Assembly: GCA_963708295.1 (NCBI GenBank)
Contig: CAVPSJ010000013.1
Coordinates: 263,317 to 327,316 of the forward strand
Origin: an uncultured delta proteobacterium
Lineage (GTDB): Bacteria > Desulfobacterota > BSN033 > UBA1163
Reading direction: 5' to 3'
DNA length: 64,000 nucleotides
Shown: one piece after another, positions 8,660 to 64,000 of the stretch
How the letters are laid out: every line of letters begins with the position of its first letter
How positions within the stretch are numbered: the first letter of the stretch is position 1
Made by a program: the position numbers and the translations under genes
The notes under the pieces: model-generated
The model's database searches: none
Seen by the model: only the letters and a program-made list of their open reading frames with translations
Told to the model about the DNA's origin: nothing

Positions 8660-10012
8660 ATGTTTCGAACCATTAGGTTCAAGCTATCCCTTTTTGTCTT
8701 CATCCTCCTCATATTTGCCACAGCTGTATTCTTTATTGCCACGATTAAGACCCTGGATCAGGTTATTCGCAACGAGATTATCAAAAGGGCGGAATCTCTA
8801 AGCAAAAGCTCTGCCGCGTCGGCAGCCTACAACCTGATCTCAGGGGATGTATTGGGTATGGATCATCTTGTCTTTAAAGGAAAGAAATCGAACACAGATG
8901 TGGAGTATATCGCTGTCATTGACACCCGAATGAATGTCATAGCCCATAGCGACATCAAAAGAAGGGGAGAGATTCTAAAGGGGGGGGAAGGAACGTTTTC
9001 AAGGAAGGATGGGGACGAGACGATTGTAAAAGAAATTTCGCTTTCCTCCGGAAGATCCTTTGAGATCTCTACCCCGATTGTTTTTAAGGGTAGAGTATTG
9101 GGAATGGTTGTGGTCGGAGTGAACCAATCCGTCCTTTTAGAGGCCCAGCGGGTAGCCCGTCGGCGGATTTTCTTGATGTTCACGGTCGTCCTATTCATGG
9201 GTCTCATCGGTATTCTAGGGTTATCCTCCTTTATTACGAAACCGATCAAAGAACTCTCCGAGGGGATGGAAGGACTCAAGGGAGGGAAAGGAGCAAGACC
9301 TCTCAGGGTTTACTCAAGGGATGAGCTTGGAAAATTGACACAAAGCTTTAACAAAATGAGCGCCCTGATTACGGATCAAAAAAAGGAACTGTTTAGATAT
9401 ACTCAAGAGCTGGAGGAAGCCTATGTCTCGATCCTGAGGGTCCTGGCCATGGCCATCGACGCCCGGGATTCTTATACACTGGGTCATTCCGCGCGAGTCG
9501 CTTTGCATTCGTTGATGATCGGTGAAGAAATTGGTCTTACAAAAAACGAACTTGAAGAGCTTGAAATCGCTTCTCTTTTTCATGATGTGGGAAAGCTCAA
9601 AACCCCTGATGCTATCCTATTTAAAAGCAAGTCTCTGAACTCGACAGAATATGATGAGATCAGGCACCATCCGGAGGATGGTGCGGAAATCCTGAAGAAA
9701 GTAAAATCGCTCCAGAAATATGTTGAGCCGGTAAAGCATCATCATGAGTATTACAACGGGGAAGGATACCCCGATGGATTGGATGGAGACGGAATTCCAC
9801 TTCACGCAGCAATTATCTCCATCGCAGACACCTACGATGCCATGACTTCAACGAGACCTTACAGAAAGGCCCTCTCAAAAGAAGAAGCCTGCATGGAATT
9901 GGAAAGGGGAGCCGGAAAACAGTTTCACCCCGAATTGGTCAAGGCTTTTCTAAGGGCGTTAAAGCATGGGGGACAACCGTCGCTTCATCCTTATCTCACA
10001 AAAGTGATATGA
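8660..10012 (+). CDS. Membrane HAMP + HD-GYP cyclic dinucleotide phosphodiesterase
   Basis: Two TM helices around a periplasmic domain, HAMP (DELGKLTQSFNKM), then HSARV, HDVGK, HHEYYNGEGYP, IADTYDAM and RPYR. Confidence 0.92.
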   Translation: MFRTIRFKLSLFVFILLIFATAVFFIATIKTLDQVIRNEIIKRAESLSKSSAASAAYNLISGDVLGMDHLVFKGKKSNTDVEYIAVIDTRMNVIAHSDIKRRGEILKGGEGTFSRKDGDETIVKEISLSSGRSFEISTPIVFKGRVLGMVVVGVNQSVLLEAQRVARRRIFLMFTVVLFMGLIGILGLSSFITKPIKELSEGMEGLKGGKGARPLRVYSRDELGKLTQSFNKMSALITDQKKELFRYTQELEEAYVSILRVLAMAIDARDSYTLGHSARVALHSLMIGEEIGLTKNELEELEIASLFHDVGKLKTPDAILFKSKSLNSTEYDEIRHHPEDGAEILKKVKSLQKYVEPVKHHHEYYNGEGYPDGLDGDGIPLHAAIISIADTYDAMTSTRPYRKALSKEEACMELERGAGKQFHPELVKAFLRALKHGGQPSLHPYLTKVI

Positions 10013-53760: not shown

Positions 53761-54856
53761 ATGCAAGACATTTATTCTGAAATCATAAAAGCCCTTGAGA
53801 AGAAGGAGAAGGTAGCATTAGCCACATTGATTAATCGGGTGGGCTCTGCCCCAAGAGCTGTGGGCGCGAAATATTTGATTAGGCAAGATGGCACTTCCTT
53901 TGGCTCCATCGGGGGGGGGTGCGTCGAGGCAGAGGTGTGGCAGGAAGCTCAAAAAGTCATGGAGAAGCGCGAAGGAAGGGTTCTCCATTTTGACCTGACA
54001 TCCGAGCAGCTGGCGGAAGGCGGCCTGGTCTGCGGAGGGAATATCGACATCTTTTTGGAACCCCTGCGAGAAGATTTCTTGGATGTCTATCAGGAGGCAA
54101 GGAGGGTGAGAATGGGAGGAGGATCGGCGATCCTCGCTACGCCGGTCCTGGTGAATGGTAATTTCCCTAAAGGGCGAAGGTTTAAAGGTATTGATAAAAA
54201 ACTCTGGAGAAAAGGTGGGTTCTTTATTGGGTGGAGCGGAATTAGAAAAGAAGGTTTTGAGCGAAGGGGAGGAAGTGTTAAGAAATAGAAAGCCAAGAAT
54301 ATTGGCTTTGAGTCATGAAGACGCGAGTATGGAAATACTTCTGGAGCCTGTCTTTTGTGAGCCGACGGTTTACATCTTTGGAGGAGGTCATGTTTCTGAA
54401 CAAGTAGCACCTCTTGCCAAGAATGTTCATTTTAAGGTGGTGGTCATTGATGACCGCGAGATATTTGCCAATCGAGAGCGTTTTCCAGAGGCGGATGAAG
54501 TCATCGTGTCAGAATTTGAGAAGTGTTTTGACCGACTCAGCATTGATGAGTCCTCCTATTTGGTCATCGTCACCCGGGGACATCTTTATGATGGTATTGT
54601 ACTGGAACAGGCACTCAAATCCAAAGCCCGTTATATCGGTATGATCGGTTCAAGAAAGAAAATTGGGACCCTCTATCAAAGTTTAACCGCGAAGGGGATC
54701 GCTAAAGAGGCCCTGGGTCGAGTCCATGCGCCCATTGGAATTGAAATCAACTCCGAAACTCCCGAAGAGATCGCGGTCAGTATCGTGGCAGAATTGATTA
54801 AAGTGAGAGGAGAATCCATTTCATCAACCAGCCCGGTTCGAGGAAGAGCCCTCTAA
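53761..54856 (+). CDS. xdhC: XdhC/CoxI-family Moco chaperone, frameshift near 54170
   Basis: GSAPR, GSIGGGCVE and CGG; second piece IFGGGHV, DDR, VTRGH, YIGMIGSRKK, APIG and TPEEIAVSI. Confidence 0.92.
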
Positions 54857-54890
54857 ACATAGAATCGATTTATCCCCATTCTCGTTGATT

Positions 54891-57579
54891 CCTCAGTTTT
54901 TGAGCTGGGTAGTTGGGTCGCCGAAGAGGATCCAGGTTCGGCGGACATCGGGGTCAGGGGTGGCAGCCTTGGCCCTTTTTGACGGCCTCGCCGAGAGTGA
55001 TGGGTTCCCCATTGAAGAGAACCCTTATTAATTCCCGGTTCATCATGGCCTGCGCCTCTGGCTCCGTCAATCCCGAAGAAGCCCAAACTGCGACGGCTCC
55101 CCCACCTTCGGCCTTCAACAATGCTTCGGAAAGACTCTCCGTATACACATCTTGAAACATTCCGTTGAAACAGGTCATGTTGATAAAAAAGGGTAAACGC
55201 CAACCATTGGTCAATGTGACTCGCATCCCCCGAGTTCAGGATGCCCCCATTCCAGAGCTCCACTGAACCATGACCAAAGTAGTTAACCAGTGAAGGCCCC
55301 TGGTTAATGCTGGCGATCAGCGCATTCCTCGCCTCCCCATCCGTGCCAAAGTCGCCCCGGAAGATCTTTCGAACCACGATAGAGGATGGAAGAAGTCCCC
55401 TGAGCTCCTCACTGACCGTTTCATAATTGAACGTGTCATTGATATCTGCTACGAACACCGCCTCTTGCATCGGAGCCGCCTGCCTATAACCCACGATCTT
55501 CGAAACCAGGACATCCAATTCCTCCACCGTCCGAACAGGCAACCGCCCAATCGCCATCTCCGGAAGTCCATCATCATTAAAGTCCACAAACCAATCATCC
55601 GAAGCTGTCTCAAGATAAGCCGTGTCAATCAACTTCGTCGGCACAAAGTCGACATCACCCAATCCCAGGAAGTTTCGAGGATCAAAACTTCCATCCCCCA
55701 CCAAGAGCACATATTGAGGCGCTTTTTTCCAATGCGTTCTTGCCCAGGCCAAAAGGTCCTTGATTGCTCTGGGACTCTTCTGACCAAAATTAAACTCGTC
55801 ATAAAGATCCCCTACATCCATCAACTCCACCGATAAACCCTGAGACTCCCGATCCCTTCTCAGGGGCTCCATGCTCTTGAGAAAATCCCGATGAGAAATG
55901 ATGACCAGATCCGCACCATTGGACCCTAGATACCAGGACGAAGGCCCATTCGCCTCCACCTTGGCCGGACTTTTGATTCTCCCCTCAGTAAACGCATAAA
56001 GGGCATGACTTCCAGACCCATTCACGGTCAAGGAAAGGGTGAATCCTGAAGCGCCTGTATTCACCTTTCCTGTGATCTCCTGAATCTTCTGAGGGTCGGT
56101 GATATCGACCACACGAATCCGAGAATCGCTGAACCCTTCAATCAAAAGCTGCCCGGGTTTATCAACGGTAAAACGCAGCGCATCATCGTCTGCCCCATAG
56201 GTGTGCCAGTAGGTCAATCGGATGACGTCCACTAAACTTACATCCAAGTCCCCACCCTCTGGCACCAGGGTTACCAGATTCTCCCCCTCCAAAAGCAGCG
56301 ACTGGGGAACGGACCATCGCCCGATTCCTAGGGATTGCTCCTCAAAGACCACCTCCCCAACTTCCACCTCGTTGAGAAACACCTTCACCCGATGAGAAGC
56401 ATGGGTTACTCCCTGAAGGACCACCTCGAGGGAGGCCTTCCCAGAAGATGCCGGATCTGGATGAGGAATGTTCAAGAGCTGATTTACAGGGGCCCCGGCA
56501 ATAATCGACCCGAAGAAGTTAGAGGCCTCCCCATTCTTGAGAGCCGCAAAATAGATCGTCCGGTCTCTCTTCTCCACCAGATAAGGAAAACCCGAGATTC
56601 CTAACGACGCTCCTTTCCCCTGATAGACCTGTATCCGCTTCCCTGGCTTCGTTCCCTCAATCAGCCAGTAGACCCTTGCGTCCGTTGAAAGGGTATCCAA
56701 TCCAACTCCATAAAACTCGATGGTGTCCTGAGGATCAAACCGACTATCCGCCTCGCCTCTCACACACATCGGTTGTTCCACTCCGTCCACGTAGAGTTGC
56801 AAGTAGCGAGGATTGACCATCGGATTTACTCCTGCTGCCACTAACTCAGGCTGCGTCACTCGATACCATCCTTGCTCCTTAATGGTGAGTTTCACCGAAG
56901 GCCTGCCAGCTAAAAGCTGCTGCATCGTAGCAACGAGGGATGAGGACTGAGAACTAGGCAAGGATTGAGAAAGGAGTGATGAGGGCTGAGTCTCAACTGA
57001 GGTTCCTGCCTTAAGTGACTTCCCCGCCGAAGCGGGCTTTGCGTAGGCGGGAGTGATCCTCGACCCCAGTGCTCCTTTACCCTCCATCAAAAACGGATTC
57101 CTTTTGAGCCTCTCTTTCAGGTCATGAACCCTCCAGTACTGGTCATATTTCTCCTCCAACCTCGTCCCAAGCTCGCTCAAAAACTCCGGCTTGACGGTTT
57201 TGGGTAAAGGCTTTCCAAGTACGAACGGGACAACGGGCCCATGCCACGTCCTCTTTCCACTAAGATCCGTATCCTCAAGCCAATACCGCACCGTACCAAC
57301 TCCCGAAGACTGAGGACTGAGTGAAGAGGTGTCCCACCAGTGATAAGAACGGCCTGCCCCAAGGGATGTGCCTGACCCCGCAAGCAATGCCGAACCTGCA
57401 ATAAGATCCGGAGTCAAACGAACAAGCTCGCCATTCTCCTCCCGATAAACATGAAACCCGAGGTTATTCACCTCGAAGCCGGTTTTCCATTTCAGTAAAA
57501 ACGCTGCATCATGCTTGGCGGCCGTAAAAGAAACCAGCTTCACTGCAGTCGGATTCGCTGGCTTGATCGCTACGGCGCC
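54891..57579. repeat. Near-identical ~2.69 kb direct repeat, copy A (partner 58551-61238)
   Basis: Base-by-base match at an offset of about 3660, with roughly a dozen substitutions and 3 single-base indels seen by eye. Confidence 0.97.
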
Positions 57580-58290
57580 TATAGACCACTGACGACCGTT
57601 AGCCAGGCTCCAGGACATGAGCACGTTCCCTCCACCATTCGGCCCCGGTTCGGTGCTGCCTGCACCATTCTCTTTCGCAGCGTTGCCACCCGGGTTTGTC
57701 GTCATTCGGTTCCATCGTTGTGATTGACTGGGATTTACGACCAACGTCTCAGAATTATTCTGTTTACCGACCACATCAATGACGACCTCACCTTCATTGA
57801 CGCCCGTGACAGTTACATTAGGCGCATTACTGTTTCCTGTAGCCGAAAAAAAAGTGCCCAAGGGAGCCGTCTGACTCACACCCGTGAATGAAACTGCCCC
57901 TACGACAAAAGCAGCCGTATTTGCCCCTGTCAGCGTGACAACGACATTGTTGGTTCCAGTGGCCGGCGCCACTAATCTCCATATCTCAACTCGGCTGCGG
58001 TTTCCGTTGGCCCTAAAACCAGCCCGTGTAAGGCCGACACCGCCGTAAGTAACGGTGTTAACTGTATCACCAGCACCTGTATTGCGGATTGACACACCAA
58101 CGATTAAGAGGCGGTTCGTGCCTGCTGCACCAATTGTGTGCGAAAAGGTGAGGCTATTCAGGAGGCTGGCCCCCGTATCCGCACTCGAGACCGCATCAAG
58201 GTTGATACCCTGTGCTCGGACTTGTGCAAGCGAAACAAAACAGAGCAAAAAACTAAGCAGAATCAGAAAAAAGAAGGTTCTTTTTAGCAT
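54893..58290 (-). CDS. Secreted C25 (gingipain-like) cysteine peptidase, copy 1; indels at ~55222 and ~54973
   Basis: Sec signal peptide, ~210-aa beta-rich N-domain, NPTAVKLVSFTA junction, then YVLLVGD, IGRLP, YFGHGS (His), MTCFNG (Cys, after frameshift correction) and LFGDP. Confidence 0.88.
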
Positions 58291-58350
58291 TCAGCCCCTC
58301 CTCCTTTTAATCAAATAAGGTAGCTGTCCAAAGTCTGTTTAACGATTCAG

Positions 58351-58366
58351 AGCAAGAGTAATACCA
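58351..58366 (-). promoter_or_regulatory. sigma54 promoter TGGTATTACTCTTGCT for C25 copy 1
   Basis: GG-N10-GC about 60 bp upstream of ATG 58290; FleQ-box-like ATCAGTAAAATGGC at 58431-58444. Confidence 0.62.
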
Positions 58367-58550
58367 TGTCTCCTTGTCATCCTTAACCCGTTGTAATTGC
58401 TATATTTTCTATAGGGGATAGTTCTGAAAAATCAGTAAAATGGCCAATTTTTGTCCGTTTATATTCAATTTGTAGATAGATCTGCCTGATAGAGGTCTGT
58501 GAGATGGATCTTCATTCAAGGGATGCTTCGAATGATCGACCTTCGTTCTC

Positions 58551-61238
58551 CCTCAGTTTTTGAGCTGGGTAGTTGGGTCGCCGAAGAGGATCCAGGTTCG
58601 GCGGACATCGGGGTCAGGGGTGGCAGCCTTGGCCTTTTTGACGGCCTCGCCGAGAGTGATGGGTTCCCCATTGAAGAGAACCCTTATTAATTCCCGGTTC
58701 ATCATGGCCTGCGCCTCTGGCTCCGTCAATCCTGAAGAAGCCCAAACTGCGACGGCTCCCCCACCTTCGGCCTTCAACAATGCTTCGGAAAGACTCTCCG
58801 TATACACATCTTGAAACATTCCGTTGAAACAGGTCATGTTGATAAAAAAGGGTAAACGCCAACCATTGGTCAATGTGACTGCATCCCCCGAGTTCAGGAT
58901 GCCCCCATTCCAAACCTCCACTGAACCATGACCAAAGTAGTTAACCAGTGAAGGCCCCTGGTTAATGCTGGCGATCAGCGCATTCCTCGCCTCCCCATCC
59001 GTGCCAAAGTCGCCCCGGAAGATCTTTCGAACCACGATAGAGGATGGAAGAAGTCCCCTGAGCTCCTCAATAACCGTTTCATAATTAAACGTGTCATTGA
59101 TATCTGCTACGAACACCGCCTCTTGCATCGGAGCCGCCTGCCTATAACCCACGATCTTCGAAACCAGGACATCCAATTCCTCCACCGTCCGAACAGGCAA
59201 CCGCCCAATCGCCATCTCCGGAAGTCCATCATCATTAAAGTCCACAAACCAATCATCCGAAGCTGTCTCAAGATAAGCCGTGTCAATCAACTTCGTCGGC
59301 ACAAAGTCGACATCACCCAATCCCAGGAAGTTTCGAGGATCAAAACTTCCATCTCCCACCAAGAGCACATATTGAGGCGCTTTTTTCCAATGCGTTCTTG
59401 CCCAGGCCAAAAGGTCCTTGATTGCTCTGGGACTCTTCTGACCAAAATTAAACTCGTCATAAAGATCCCCTACATCCATCAACTCCACCGATAAACCCTG
59501 AGCCTCCCGATCCCTTCTCAGGGGCTCCATGCTCTTGAGAAAATCCCGATGAGAAATGATGACCAGATCCGCACCATTGGACCCTAGATACCAGGACGAA
59601 GGCCCATTCGCCTCCACCTTGGCCGGGCTTTTAATTCTCCCCTCAGTAAACGCATAAAGGGCATGACTTCCAGACCCATTCACGGTCAAGGAAAGGGTGA
59701 ATCCTGAAGCGCCTGTATTCACCTTTCCTGTGATCTCCTGAATCTTCTGAGGGTCGGTGATATCGACCACACGAATCCGAGAATCGCTGAACCCTTCAAT
59801 CAAAAGCTGCCCGGGTTTATCAACGGTAAAACGCAGCGCATCATCGTCTGCCCCATAGGTGTGCCAGTAGGTCAATCGGATGACGTCCACTAAACTTACA
59901 TCCAAGTCCCCACCCTCTGGCACCAGGGTTACCAGATTCTCCCCCTCCAAAAGCAGCGACTGGGGAACGGACCATCGCCCGATTCCTAGGGATTGCTCCT
60001 CAAAGACCACCTCCCCAACTTCCACCTCGTTGAGAAACACCTTCACCCGATGAGAAGCATGGGTTACTCCCTGAAGGACCACCTCGAGGGAGGCCTTCCC
60101 AGAAGATGCCGGATCTGGATGAGGAATGTTCAAGAGCTGATTTACAGGGGCCCCGGCAATAATCGACCCGAAGAAGTTAGAGGCCTCCCCATTCTTGAGA
60201 GCCGCAAAATAGATCGTCCGGTCTCTCTTCTCCACCAGATAAGGAAAACCCGAGATTCCTAACGACGCTCCTTTCCCCTGATAGACCTGTATCCGCTTCC
60301 CTGGCTTCGTTCCCTCAATCAGCCAGTAGACCCTTGCGTCCGTTGAAAGGGTATCCAATCCAACTCCATAAAACTCGATGGTGTCCTGAGGATCAAACCG
60401 ACTATCCGCCTCGCCTCTCACACACATCGGTTGTTCCACTCCGTCCACGTAGAGTTGCAAGTAGCGAGGATTGACCATCGGATTTACTCCTGCTGCCACT
60501 AACTCAGGCTGCGTCACTCGATACCATCCTTGCTCCTTAATGGTGAGTTTCACCGAAGGCCTGCCAGCTAAAAGCTGCTGCATCGTAGCAACGAGGGATG
60601 AGGACTGAGAACTAGGCAAGGATTGAGAAAGGAGTGATGAGGGCTGAGTCTCAACTGAGGTTCCTGCCTTAAGTGACTTCCCCGCCGAAGCGGGCTTTGC
60701 GTAGGCGGGAGTGATCCTCGACCCCAGTGCTCCTTTACCCTCCATCAAAAACGGATTCCTTTTGAGCCTCTCTTTCAGGTCATGAACCCTCCAGTACTGG
60801 TCATATTTCTCCTCCAACCTCGTCCCAAGCTCGCTCAAAAACTCCGGCTTGACGGTTTTGGGTAAAGGCTTTCCAAGTACGAACGGGACAACGGGCCCAT
60901 GCCACGTCCTCTTTCCACTAAGATCCGTATCCTCAAGCCAATACCGCACCGTACCAACTCCCGAAGACTGAGGACTGAGTGAAGAGGTGTCCCACCAGTG
61001 ATAAGAACGGCCTGCCCCAAGGGATGTGCCTGACCCCGCAAGCAATGCCGAACCTGCAATAAGATCCGGAGTCAAACGAACAAGCTCGCCATTCTCCTCC
61101 CGATAAACATGAAACCCGAGGTTATTCACCTCGAAGCCGGTTTTCCATTTCAAGTAAAAACGCTGCATCATGCTTGGCGGCCGTAAAAGAGACCAGCTTC
61201 ACTGCAGTCGGATTCGCTGGCTTGATCGCTACGGCGCC
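58551..61238. repeat. Near-identical ~2.69 kb direct repeat, copy B
   Basis: See copy A. Confidence 0.97.
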
Positions 61239-61970
61239 GATGGCCCACCCGAGGCTGCTTGTGCTAGACCAGTTCATGGTGACGGTGCCGCCTCCATCCG
61301 GGCCCGGTTCGGTACTATCACCACCTATAACGTCATAGTAACTACCACTACTTGTGGCCCTGTTCCAGCGCTGGGTTTGGCCGGATCCTGGCGAGATTGC
61401 GGGGCTTGCATTGCGTCTCGCTACCGTGTCTATCACAACGTCACCTTCATTGACGGTCGTGACGTTTACGCTTGGTGTAGTACTCGTACCCGTTGCAGAA
61501 AAGAAAGTGCCAGGCGGAATAGTTTGGCTCGCACCTGTAAATGAGATAGCTCCGGCGACGAAGTTTGTTGTCCCCGAAAGCGTGACGACGACGTTGTTTG
61601 GTCCCGTAGCCGGACCTGCTAAGGCCCATGTCTCGGAGCGAACAAATCCAAGCCGAAGCGGAAATAAACTCTCAAACCAAAATCCGCTAATGCCGCCGAC
61701 AGAGGTGAGAGCATTTCCACCATAAGTTACACTTGTAACAGTATAATTATTGAAGCCCGTGGTACAGATTGACACCCCAACGACCAGGAGGCGGTTCGTA
61801 CCTGCTGCACCAATTGTGTGCGAAAAGGTGAGGCTATTCGATGCAGCACCGCCCGTATCTGCACTTGAGACCGAATCAAGGTTGATCCCTTGTGCCTGGA
61901 CCTGTGCAAGCGAAACAAAACAGGCCAAAAAACTAACCAGCATGAGAAAAAAGAAGGTTTTTTTCAGCAT
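58553..61970 (-). CDS. Secreted C25 (gingipain-like) cysteine peptidase, copy 2; frameshift near 61152
   Basis: ORFs 61122-61970 and 58553-61171 join by removing one A (compared with copy 1); intact GHGS and MTC catalytic motifs. Confidence 0.9.
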
Positions 61971-62232
61971 TTATTCCCGCCTCCTTCTAATTAAAATAGG
62001 GTACTTGCCCAGCGATATATCCTTCATGAGATTAGAGTTAAGCTAGTCATGAGCATCTGAATCCTTTGGGATTGACATTTGCCATTCCGATGAAAACGGG
62101 AATCAGAAGGCTGAAAGAAAAACTGGATTTTTTGCTTTGACAGAAATGATGAGCAAAAGAACAAGAATGTTTAAAGCGGACTTCAGGTCGATAATATGGT
62201 TAAGAACCCGTCGCCTTCGAGGCGAGGACGGT

Positions 62233-62790
62233 TTAGTTTATTGATGACATTCCCTTGGTATGTTCTGGATTAGATAAATGAGCCCTCACCCAAAGGATGC
62301 TTTGGATGATCGACCTTTTGAAACGAGATCCACAAAGATGAGCAGTATACAATATTCTTGATTTCCAGCCATCGAGGTCAATGAGATCGCCGTTTCGCTC
62401 AACAGAAACCACTTTACCTAAAGCTTGATCCGCCTCCACAGGTTCATCACAAGTGGACGAAGCGTCACCACGTAAAATAAAAAAGGTACCGAGGACTGAG
62501 TTCTGGGGGTTGAGTAAAGTCTTTTTTCTTCCTATCCGCACCACACGGTGCGCAATCACACCCCTGCCATTATGATGGAGAAGAATGTCTCTTCGCTTGA
62601 CCTGAGATGGGACCACAGGTTCAACGGTGATCCTCTCTCCGTCTTTGATGGTGGGATACATGCTCCATCCCTTCGCATAAAACCGAACACCATAGCCCTG
62701 GCGCAAAAGCCCTGTGGCAACATCCGTGAATAGGCAAAGAGGGCTGGGGGAAGAGGATGGTGAGATGACTCTATCTTTTGAATTCCTCAT
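62233..62790 (-). CDS. S24/S26-family peptidase (Ser/His type, no obvious membrane anchor)
   Basis: GWSMYPTI, VIAHRVV and LRGDA...DEPV...LGKV; ATG 62790 preferred because 62826 lies inside a repeat element. Confidence 0.85.
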   Translation of the reverse strand: MRNSKDRVISPSSSPSPLCLFTDVATGLLRQGYGVRFYAKGWSMYPTIKDGERITVEPVVPSQVKRRDILLHHNGRGVIAHRVVRIGRKKTLLNPQNSVLGTFFILRGDASSTCDEPVEADQALGKVVSVERNGDLIDLDGWKSRILYTAHLCGSRFKRSIIQSILWVRAHLSNPEHTKGMSSIN

Positions 62791-62805
62791 AATTGATGGC
62801 TCAAG

Positions 62806-62939
62806 GACGCCTCTAAGAATTACCAATTTGTCACTTCCGCCCCGTATCCAGTACGGGGTAAACTCCCGCGGGAGGCCGGTATTATTAGGAGCTTCTGGAT
62901 TCCTGCTTTCGCAGGAATGACATTCTTAGGAGTAGCCTC
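62806..62939. mobile_element. MITE/REP-like palindromic element
   Basis: Imperfect terminal inverted repeats (CCTCTAAGAAT / ATTCTTAGGAG) enclosing hairpins CCCCGTATCCAGTACGGGG and ATTCCTGCTTTCGCAGGAAT. Confidence 0.6.
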
Positions 62940-62983
62940 AACATAAGTGTTGCATTGGAAAGGGAGTTGGGGGGGTGAGTCTG

Positions 62984-63865
62984 TCAGGTCAATCCATCAA
63001 TGAACTCTGCTATTCGCTCATCAGGGAAGAACGTCAATTCGTAGCAAGGGATCGTTTTCACGACTTCCTCAAGAAAGGCCAATATGAATTCGATCGCCTG
63101 TTGATGATAGAAGGGAGGGAAGCAGGAGGTAAAAAGGCGCGAGACAGCTTCTGCTTTCCCGAGAGGGACAAGCCTATTTTTTTCTCCATGCCGCAGGAAG
63201 AAGATCTTCGTGAGGTGTCCCTTTTCAGGAGAGGCTATCTCTGCCTCTCCGTGCCAGGGTGTTCCGTACATCCATATCCTTTGACTCTTTCTTCGGAGGA
63301 CAATCCGATCATCACTTAAAATCTTCACCTGGTTTAACTTCTGATAGAGCCTCGCCATGGTTGTCTTGCCCGCTCCTGACTGGCCCACAAAGAGATGGGC
63401 TTCGCCCGACGGAATGAGAACTCCACAGGCATGGACCTCCACGCCCTCTCTCATTGCTAAAAAATGAGTGACGGTGAGTTCGTCCAAGGGGTATTCGAGC
63501 GGGTAAACAGGTTGATCAAGTTTAAAAGAAGAGCAATTAAGAAGGATTTCGCACTGGGTGAATTTGTTATTAAAGGAGGCTATCTTATAGGGATGAGGCC
63601 CAAGGGCGGGAGAGGTGAAACGGAAAAGGTAAGATCCATTCTGCTGATACAATTGCCAAAGGGCACCGGAGTCAAAGATCTTTTTACCCCATGTTCTTTG
63701 AGATAGGTTTCCCCAAAGGGCTTGAATGTTCACATCAGGTTTCCTTGGGGAAACGATAAACTGTCTTCACGGCCCCTCAGGCTGGACTTTCATATGAGGG
63801 CTATCAGCAGCGATGTGAAGGGTAATGTCTGCGACTCTGATAAAGAATGAGGAGTGAGTGCTCAT
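62984..63865 (-). CDS. HPr-kinase-related P-loop protein (ScmC/PadeK-like); in-frame TGA at 63767-63769, probably a sequence error
   Basis: VHACGV, GQSGAGKTT, LSDDRIVLR and YGTPWHG; upstream ATG 63865 with RBS GAGGA is in the same frame. Confidence 0.8.
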
Positions 63866-63889
63866 TGTGCAATCCTCGTCCTCGTGGAT

Positions 63890-64000
63890 TTAAGAACCAT
63901 TACTAAGGCAAGAAAGGGTGGAACAAGCGGATGACAGTGGCCCGGCGACCTGTGGTGCTCTTACAAAATCCCAAAACCGCCTCTTCGGGTCTCAGCGGCA
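63890..64000 (-). CDS. Putative RiPP-like precursor peptide, 5' part outside the window, one indel near 63950
   Basis: Reads ...PLRPEEAVLGFCKSTT(G)/AGPLSSACSTLSCLSNGS*; stop lies 24 nt before the kinase start. Confidence 0.65.

Follow-up and report, generated by a model that had tools for sequence, protein, structure and literature searches.

The 64,000-nucleotide stretch of DNA analysed here (the window; G000:C13:263317-327316) breaks off inside a gene group. Window base 64000 is the final base of contig C13, and, read from this contig end, the minus strand carries a partial small open reading frame (ORF), a kinase, a peptidase and two large genes of the C25 peptidase family. To which system do these genes belong, and which of its parts lie beyond the contig end? 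The original prediction, made from the letters of the window, was a pathway resembling those for peptides that are synthesised ribosomally and modified after translation (RiPPs), encoded by five co-oriented minus-strand genes; all five are present in the ORF list, with the qualification that one is truncated and that frameshifts occur. We consider it likely that the window holds the downstream half of a widespread RiPP-type maturation cassette, a sister of the SynChlorMet cassette with a single radical SAM enzyme, coupled in this lineage to secreted PorU-like C25 proteins.

The upstream genes were found in relatives of the locus. Two loci, L063 and L065 (kinase identity 90%), are syntenic with the window and have XdhC, YqeC, MobA-like and Succ_CoA_lig genes downstream in common with it. 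Both show the order glycosyltransferase family 2 (GT2) - GDP-mannose dehydratase - epimerase - NTP_transf_5 - Glycos_transf_4 - PqqD - radical SAM - precursor - kinase - S24-like peptidase - one C25 gene (1126 aa). PqqD and radical SAM genes stand in the same order in G019, G029 and G030, and both are present in L011, L013 and L014. Two sets of loci were compared. The genome set came from a scan of species-representative genomes and comprises 36 loci from Thermodesulfobacteriota, Nitrospirota, Aminicenantia, Chloroflexota, Omnitrophota, Planctomycetota, Acidobacteriota and a Methanosarcina metagenome-assembled genome (MAG); five Clostridia loci (L045-L047, L049, L050) with a partial kinase match and no PqqD, radical SAM or S26 gene were left out. 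The metagenome set comprises 80 loci kept of at least 500 relatives and is closer to the window kinase than the genome set. Thirty metagenome loci reach 2.5 kb or more upstream of the kinase; 29 of these have a radical SAM gene and 24 a PqqD gene, and an S26-like gene was found in 37 of the 54 loci with at least 700 nt downstream. All 17 radical SAM proteins examined possess the CX3CX2C motif, a C-terminal CX2CX5CX2C cluster and at least seven Cys residues beyond residue 200; in NCBIfam they come nearest to SPASM maturases, at scores well under the cut-off in every case. The PqqD proteins of the relatives score 56-65 bits. A PqqD-like RiPP recognition element (RRE), an auxiliary Cys cluster and a leader-bearing precursor, the marks of an RRE-dependent radical SAM/SPASM RiPP pathway, were found together, in the relatives only. 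The RRE and radical SAM genes that had been sought near the window cluster were thus located directly upstream in syntenic relatives, and the nucleotidyltransferase and ABC exporter genes that had also been expected both turn up in related loci.

The sequence of the small ORF is typical of a RiPP precursor, with a leader that is conserved, a core that varies while its Cys residues keep their spacing, and a constant residue at the C-terminus. In the window the contig end leaves only its 3' part (63890-64000, minus strand; 35 of about 59 codons), and an extra G at 63949/63950, one nucleotide more than in L063 and L065, shifts the frame. Positions 63951-63998 read ...PLRPEEAVLGFCKSTT in one frame and positions 63890-63949 read VAGPLSSACSTLSCLSNGS, followed by a stop codon, in the other. 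The core has three Cys residues and ends in Gly-Ser, so that the short Cys-containing peptide with a terminal Ser that had been described is recognisable in the cut and frameshifted gene. The orthologues in L063 and L065 are intact and 59 residues long. Assignment of the contig-end ORF as the tail of a radical SAM protein was considered and rejected, since G019 and four other loci show a separate small ORF between the radical SAM gene and the kinase, and this is where the precursor lies in nearly every locus. The leader follows the pattern K-x-Y-x-K-P-x-(I/V)-x-x-V-x-L-x-x-E-E-A-V-L and is succeeded by a core of the form C-K...C...C...G-S. Precursors were recovered in 58 of the 80 metagenome loci by a scan that demanded a Y/F-x-x-P motif and at least two Cys residues and left the C-terminal residue unselected; a terminal Ser is found in 57 of them (preceded by Gly in 42), and the number of Cys residues is exactly three in 55. 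The genome set has a precursor beside a homologous kinase in 31 loci, with a terminal Ser in 21 and three Cys residues in 27; one row of this alignment is from L028 of the unpublished genome G239. A conserved small peptide therefore accompanies homologous kinases in both sets, and the terminal Ser, to which the original prediction gave weight, was confirmed for most precursors but not for the Anaerolineae part of the family. The small ORF of L031 (Methanosarcina MAG; 1590-1745) is short and has two Cys residues and no terminal Ser.

The kinase gene (62984-63865, minus strand) encodes 293 aa when intact. The listed ORF covers 62984-63733; the actual start codon is an ATG at 63865, and translation from it meets an in-frame TGA (63767-63769) that results from a base lacking near 63777 and a surplus one near 63764. 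Relatives with 75-95% identity are 287-301 aa long, mostly 293, and have EGAVK where the window reads EGP, stop, R. The motifs on which the P-loop kinase had been recognised (HAC, GQSGAGKTT and SDD) were all found in the window protein. In an alignment of 26 sequences, H145, S163, G166, K167 and T169 are invariant; conservation also extends to the GxSGxGK(S/T)T loop and to a W-x-Y-G-T-P-W-H motif. Foldseek searches with the structural model (predicted local distance difference test score, pLDDT, 92.3) revealed PEPCK (1.2e-8) and HprK/P (1knx, 1kkl; about 1e-5) as matches. A His residue before the Walker A loop and a PEPCK/HprK fold place the protein among the HprK/PEPCK-like P-loop kinases. 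By sequence, matches to Pfam Hpr_kinase_C reached 19.6-20.8 bits, below the cut-off of 33.3, those to NCBIfam models were faint and confined to HprK_rel_B and ScmC, and a sequence-only search of the Protein Data Bank (PDB) with the kinase and the peptidase gave no significant match. Kinase homologues number 3800 at E<=1e-10. Most of the 120 homologues listed carry the precomputed Pfam 38.1 label PF27840 ScmC, as do 22-51% of the members of the nearest Atlas clusters. Members of the family, thousands in all, occur in bacteria of anaerobic sediments and wetlands and in some archaea.

The peptidase (62233-62826, minus strand; 197 aa) is a candidate leader peptidase. Alignment with 18 homologues revealed invariant G53, M56, P58, H93 and R94 and at least 90% conservation of S55 and G120-D121, giving the motifs G-x-S-M-x-P, H-R and G-D. 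The structural model (pLDDT 84) matched SpsB (9.9e-4), LexA, UmuD', SipA and the human signal peptidase complex (SEC11) in Foldseek. All the marks of clan SF (S24/S26) were found: the Ser of GxSMxP, a general base and the beta fold of S24/S26 enzymes. No hydrophobic N-terminal membrane anchor was visible by eye in the translation, and with the motifs and the fold match this agrees with the soluble Ser/His S26-type peptidase proposed before. One row of the S26-like alignment (A1) is from L028. In L025 (3892-5973), a 693-aa ORF fuses an S24-like domain to a GNAT acetyltransferase and NTP_transf_5.

Downstream of the peptidase lie two tandem C25 genes on the minus strand, copy 2 at 58553-61970 and copy 1 at 54853-58290, with an actual end near 54893. 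Copy 2 consists of a signal peptide, an N-terminal domain, a domain of about 100 residues termed domain X here, and a C25 domain with His and Cys. Two secreted proteins of about 1130 aa had been described; the tandem genes are there, but full size is reached only if single-base frameshifts are ignored. In copy 2, a surplus T at 61153 separates ORFs at 61122-61970 (282 aa) and 58553-61171 (872 aa), and in copy 1 an extra G near 55222 and another near 54975 put the catalytic-Cys segment out of frame, leaving tail pieces at 54954-55226 and 54893-55012. Four intact relatives with 80-89% identity are 1121-1141 aa long. Pfam Peptidase_C25 (PF01364) matches copy 2 with 263.0 bits and copy 1 with 170.9 bits, and the nearest NCBIfam model is that of PorU, the sortase of T9SS, the type IX secretion system (NF033707; 231.6 and 162.5 bits, cut-off 420). 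Among solved structures, PorU (6za2) is the best match of the copy 2 C25 domain (2.8e-12), followed by gingipain R (2.5e-9), with GHG and TC aligned. The earlier description as gingipain-like is thus right as to the family, and gingipain R does align, but PorU is closer. The N-terminal domain of the window C25 proteins matches another C25 protein, from G239. The two copies have 2700 bp in common at 99.4% identity, with three single-base indels between them, but over the first 260 residues their identity is only about 63%. Near-identical 3' parts, diverged N-termini and the single C25 gene of L063 and L065 suggest a duplication followed by 3' gene conversion or 5' divergence.

Domain X (57226-57558 and 60884-61171 in the window, both minus strand and inside the C25 proteins) has no Pfam match and follows the pattern F-T-A...W-x-T...E-x-N-N-L-G-F-N-L-Y-R...Y-Y-W-L-E-D...G-P-V. 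It was found at L036, L037, L038, L041, L042, L044, L048 and L027. In Anaerolineae, DUF11, SdrD-like, M14 and unknown proteins encoded beside the cassette carry it C-terminally. Four Anaerolineae genomes and one other have 2-7 copies each, two of the domain X counts resting on G239; these numbers suit a small cargo set and prove nothing. Its use as a genome-wide sorting tag in G000 was discarded, a hidden Markov model having matched only the two C25 proteins and one weak ORF on C14. Likewise, a GGCF motif in the tails of the G029 and G030 C25 proteins was rejected as a substrate motif, for it belongs to a CFI-box-CTERM anchor domain (83.8 bits in G029) that is absent from the window C25 proteins.

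That C25 genes accompany the cassette elsewhere was seen in both sets. Of the 24 metagenome loci whose sequence extends 3 kb or more beyond the kinase on the downstream side, 19 have a C25 gene, as do 11 of the 12 that extend 6 kb or more. The genome set has one in 17 of 36 loci, namely 13 of the 31 loci found on genome contigs and those of G000, G019, G025 and G030, that of G033 being without; among the 13 is L028, in which two C25 genes flank the cassette. Eight of the 19 genome loci without C25 lie on contigs shorter than 6 kb, which leaves 28 informative loci. Five arrangements were observed: kinase - S26 - C25 (G000, G019, L027, L063); C25 - PqqD - radical SAM - precursor - kinase - S26 (G029, G030); C25 - kinase - PqqD - radical SAM - precursor - S26 (G025); S26 - PqqD - radical SAM - precursor - kinase - C25 (Anaerolineae); and, in L033 (8434-15669), a single 2411-aa ORF comprising an S24-like domain, CARDB, six DUF11 repeats and C25. 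Among 41 relatives, nine have C25; seven have C25 and the kinase, two C25 only and seven the kinase only. On a 375-kb contig, L073 has downstream of the cassette a 1610-aa protein combining a subtilase (S8) with C25 (11525-16357), then a second C25 gene and NTP_transf_5. In L052 (G024:C2, same family), C25 is followed by an inserted RHH/PIN toxin-antitoxin pair and then by genes for an S26-like protein, a TPR protein and an ABC exporter; up to the contig end, no kinase was seen.

The prediction of a RiPP-like pathway is thus supported by comparative genomics, and the features whose absence had been named as speaking against it (RRE and radical SAM genes, a conserved small peptide, C25 genes beside the cassette in other genomes) were all found. 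By analogy with characterised pathways, the product is probably a small cross-linked, phosphorylated peptide. PqqD would bind the conserved leader K-x-Y-x-K-P-x-I/V-x-x-V-x-L, and the radical SAM/SPASM enzyme would modify the three-Cys core, most likely by thioether cross-links. The kinase may then phosphorylate the C-terminal Ser, like HPr-kinase homologues on lasso-peptide precursors; in these, according to the part of the source available, a nucleotidyltransferase adds a hexose to that phosphate (PMC8498205). Where NTP_transf_5 is present, it could extend the Ser phosphate with a sugar. The putatively cytoplasmic Ser/His S24/S26-like enzyme would cut off the leader near the EEAVL-x-x-C junction and, after export, the C25 enzyme would act on or with the peptide. 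We infer that the C25 proteins have this place in the system. A PorU-like transpeptidase with the peptide as acceptor is favoured over a plain second-step protease, the evidence being compatible with both. The intact orthologues in L063 and L065 and the defined 59-residue precursor make the chemistry of the cassette directly testable.

Several observations weigh against this reading. The window shows half of the system, as PqqD, radical SAM and NTP_transf_5 genes are not in the G000 assembly: tblastn of G000 with the radical SAM and PqqD proteins of G029 and G030 returned only generic radical SAM paralogues and no PqqD, and NTP_transf_5 (PF14907) was not found in this assembly of 91% completeness. 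Every chemical step is modelled on analogous systems. The Cys counts of the metagenome precursors are partly selected, because the scan demanded at least two. The Anaerolineae-type precursors (9 of 31), of the form C-H-S/T-S-P...C...G-C, have no terminal Ser and keep the kinase, which weakens phosphorylation of the C-terminal Ser as a general rule. The match of the peptidase to Pfam Peptidase_S24 is marginal (24.0 bits, cut-off 23.3), that to the archaeal-type signal peptidase I model TIGR02228 is below the cut-off (33.7 against 51.85 bits), and the S26-like protein of L031 (3080-3676) reads G-M-C-M-Y-P, with Cys at the position of the Ser nucleophile. Since 11 of the 28 informative genome loci are without C25, the family as a whole does not require it. 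Cassettes also often lie within glycan or exopolysaccharide loci, and adjacency to surface proteins could therefore partly reflect island structure.

The last two points are also the strength of the alternative that fares best, an autonomous RiPP pathway that could, for instance, yield a secreted peptide with antimicrobial or signalling function, and in which C25 is a mere neighbour in envelope or glycan islands. Nine of the 11 loci without C25 have NTP_transf_5 and seven an ABC transporter, loci stand amid glycosyltransferase, Wzz/GNVR and Poly_export genes, and G017 and G024 have C25 and no kinase match. Set against this, C25 adjoins the cassette in five gene orders and three phyla, is nearly constant in metagenome loci with sufficient downstream sequence (11 of 12), is fused to an S24 domain in L033 and is otherwise uncommon (9 of the 41 relatives); in G024 it still adjoins an S26-like gene. 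We regard an autonomous pathway as rather unlikely.

A second alternative, which we consider somewhat less probable still, is that the window copy is a decaying, non-functional remnant, with pseudogenes for the precursor, the kinase and both C25 proteins. Compared with L063 and L065, seven single-base differences disrupt reading frames within 10 kb, six in the cluster and one in xdhC, and other loci of the family are damaged too, the homologous G019 locus being riddled with frameshifts, with two TGA codons in its kinase, and that of G033 retaining only a truncated radical SAM gene, precursor and kinase. However, the same type of lesion affects the unrelated xdhC gene (53761-54856, plus strand), in which an extra base near 54175 produces two overlapping ORFs (175 and 233 aa) and whose orthologue in L065 is intact (367 aa). 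All lesions are of a single base, and that of the kinase is a compensated pair 13 nt apart. In public contigs of related populations (four runs, two studies), the kinase lesion is absent from all four runs and the extra G of the precursor from one contig (run X3); the C25 lesions were judged against L063, L065 and the sister copy only, as these contigs stop at 61147, short of 61153. Protein identity to intact relatives is 86-95%. Intact relatives, the absence of lesions from related contigs and the hit in xdhC indicate that the frameshifts and the TGA codon, as read in the sequence, are probably consensus errors of the assembly. The G019 locus (L011; G019:C15) has frameshifted radical SAM and precursor genes, a kinase with two TGA codons and a fragmented C25 gene; its damage may stem either from equally poor assembly or from parallel decay of the cluster.

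Least probable is that the target of the radical SAM enzyme and the kinase is a protein (C25 or a neighbouring surface protein), with the small ORF acting as a regulator or in a chaperone-like role: SPASM radical SAM enzymes can cross-link whole proteins (PMC13692751, in the part available), and C25 stands directly upstream of the maturase genes in G029, G030 and G025, a frequent position of substrate genes, but the small ORF looks like a RiPP precursor, sits between maturase and kinase in nearly every locus and is kept in loci without C25, and the C-terminal tail of the G029 C25 protein is a CFI-box-CTERM anchor domain, a tail that the window C25 proteins do not have.

Within the cassette reading, a bolder proposal, which we think improbable but worth stating, is that the modified peptide is a ribosomally made linker for surface display that tethers proteins to cell-surface polysaccharide. 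It was prompted by the affinity of C25 to PorU, the recurrent glycan-gene context and the seryl-bearing linking sugar of the T9SS described in the accessible part of PMC13086638. PorU joins cargo to an amino-acid-bearing linking sugar of anionic lipopolysaccharide (A-LPS), as stated in the portions available of two reports (PMC13086638, PMC7468200). In such a scheme, the free N-terminal amine left by leader removal would be the acceptor for the PorU-like C25 transpeptidase, and the phosphorylated C-terminal Ser would be joined via NTP_transf_5 to glycan from the nearby glycosyltransferase, Wzz and Poly_export genes. Candidate cargo would be proteins with domain X, or the N-terminal domain and domain X of C25 itself. 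If true, the system would be a non-Bacteroidota analogue of T9SS cargo attachment to the seryl-bearing linking sugar of A-LPS. If C25 ligates the peptide at all, this would be a new route for attaching proteins or peptides to the cell surface.

The spacer between kinase and peptidase (62805-62983) holds a hairpin-rich repeat element of about 100 nt (62805-62940), in which one hairpin was found. The alignment to L063 and L065 breaks between 62804 and 62906; the element is absent from both relatives, and about 34 nt of their sequence match both flanks. Other partial copies occur elsewhere in G000, and the contig depth summed over the element exceeds 1000, reaching thousands (four wetland runs). 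It has no Rfam match, nor did an Rfam scan of 54000-64000 give one. The element is probably not part of the system.

How does the cassette compare with known systems? Sactipeptide and ranthipeptide pathways resemble it in having an RRE, a SPASM-type radical SAM enzyme and a Cys-bearing core, but matches to the PapB, AlbA and StsB models are far under cut-off. The tailoring of the lasso peptides paeninodin and pseudomycoidin offers a parallel to the kinase, with an HprK/PEPCK-fold kinase beside a Ser-ending precursor and NTP_transf_5 and an ABC transporter in the same loci; the present maturase, however, is a radical SAM enzyme, and Pfam scans of the neighbouring ORFs at the loci revealed neither a lasso cyclase nor a B protease. 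PorU is the best solved homologue of the window C25 domain, with His and Cys aligned, but the window proteins stay below the NF033707 equivalog cut-off and their hosts belong to phyla other than Bacteroidota. In G000, neither SprA nor Por_Secre_tail was found; as the controls gave no match either, this result is weak.

The combination of this cassette with a PorU-like C25 protein is not described in the literature searched. These searches, which did not cover subscription journals, returned no paper joining HPr kinase, radical SAM, precursor peptide and PqqD, none joining RiPP, C25, radical SAM and peptidase, and none on PF27840, SynChlorMet, or ScmC with radical SAM. A text search of a 2023 review of RiPP leader proteases found no mention of signal peptidase, S26, S24, C25, gingipain or legumain. 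Three partners are unreported for RiPPs in that review or in the literature searched: a candidate leader peptidase of S24/S26 fold, an ScmC-type kinase matched to a C-terminal Ser, and a sortase-like C25 protein.

The nearest relative is SynChlorMet (SCM), as the original prediction had it when it pointed to SynChlorMet- and HPr-related cassettes; the kinase bears the Pfam label ScmC, which makes this a fitting comparison. The SCM cassette is defined bioinformatically, by the models TIGR04248 (ScmD), TIGR04249 (ScmC), TIGR04250 (ScmE) and TIGR04251 (ScmF). We know of no product for either SynChlorMet or the present cassette. The two differ in that each present locus has one radical SAM enzyme instead of two (ScmE and ScmF), and in that the present precursor has three Cys residues and a C-terminal Gly-Ser. 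The scores also keep them apart. On TIGR04249, the window kinase reaches 16.3 bits and relatives 25.0 and 31.0, against a cut-off of 125 and 227-302 bits for true ScmC; the present cassette scores 28.0-37.3 bits on ScmD (cut-off 100), and its radical SAM proteins 71.0-80.6 bits on ScmE and 57.5-67.6 on ScmF (cut-offs 400). C25 was not found in the two SCM loci examined. At L061, a true SCM locus, the order is ScmD - ScmE - ScmF - ScmC - signal-peptidase-like gene, with an NTP_transf_5-like gene upstream (judged by eye) and a Cys-rich 71-aa ORF (9433-9648) thereafter, whose junction S-E-A-V-C resembles the E-E-A-V-L...C of the present precursors. Both systems have, in the same order, a PqqD-like protein, a radical SAM/SPASM maturase, an ScmC-type kinase and an archaeal-type signal-peptidase-like gene, and in L061 as in the present cassette PqqD-like and signal-peptidase-like genes flank a maturase-kinase core.

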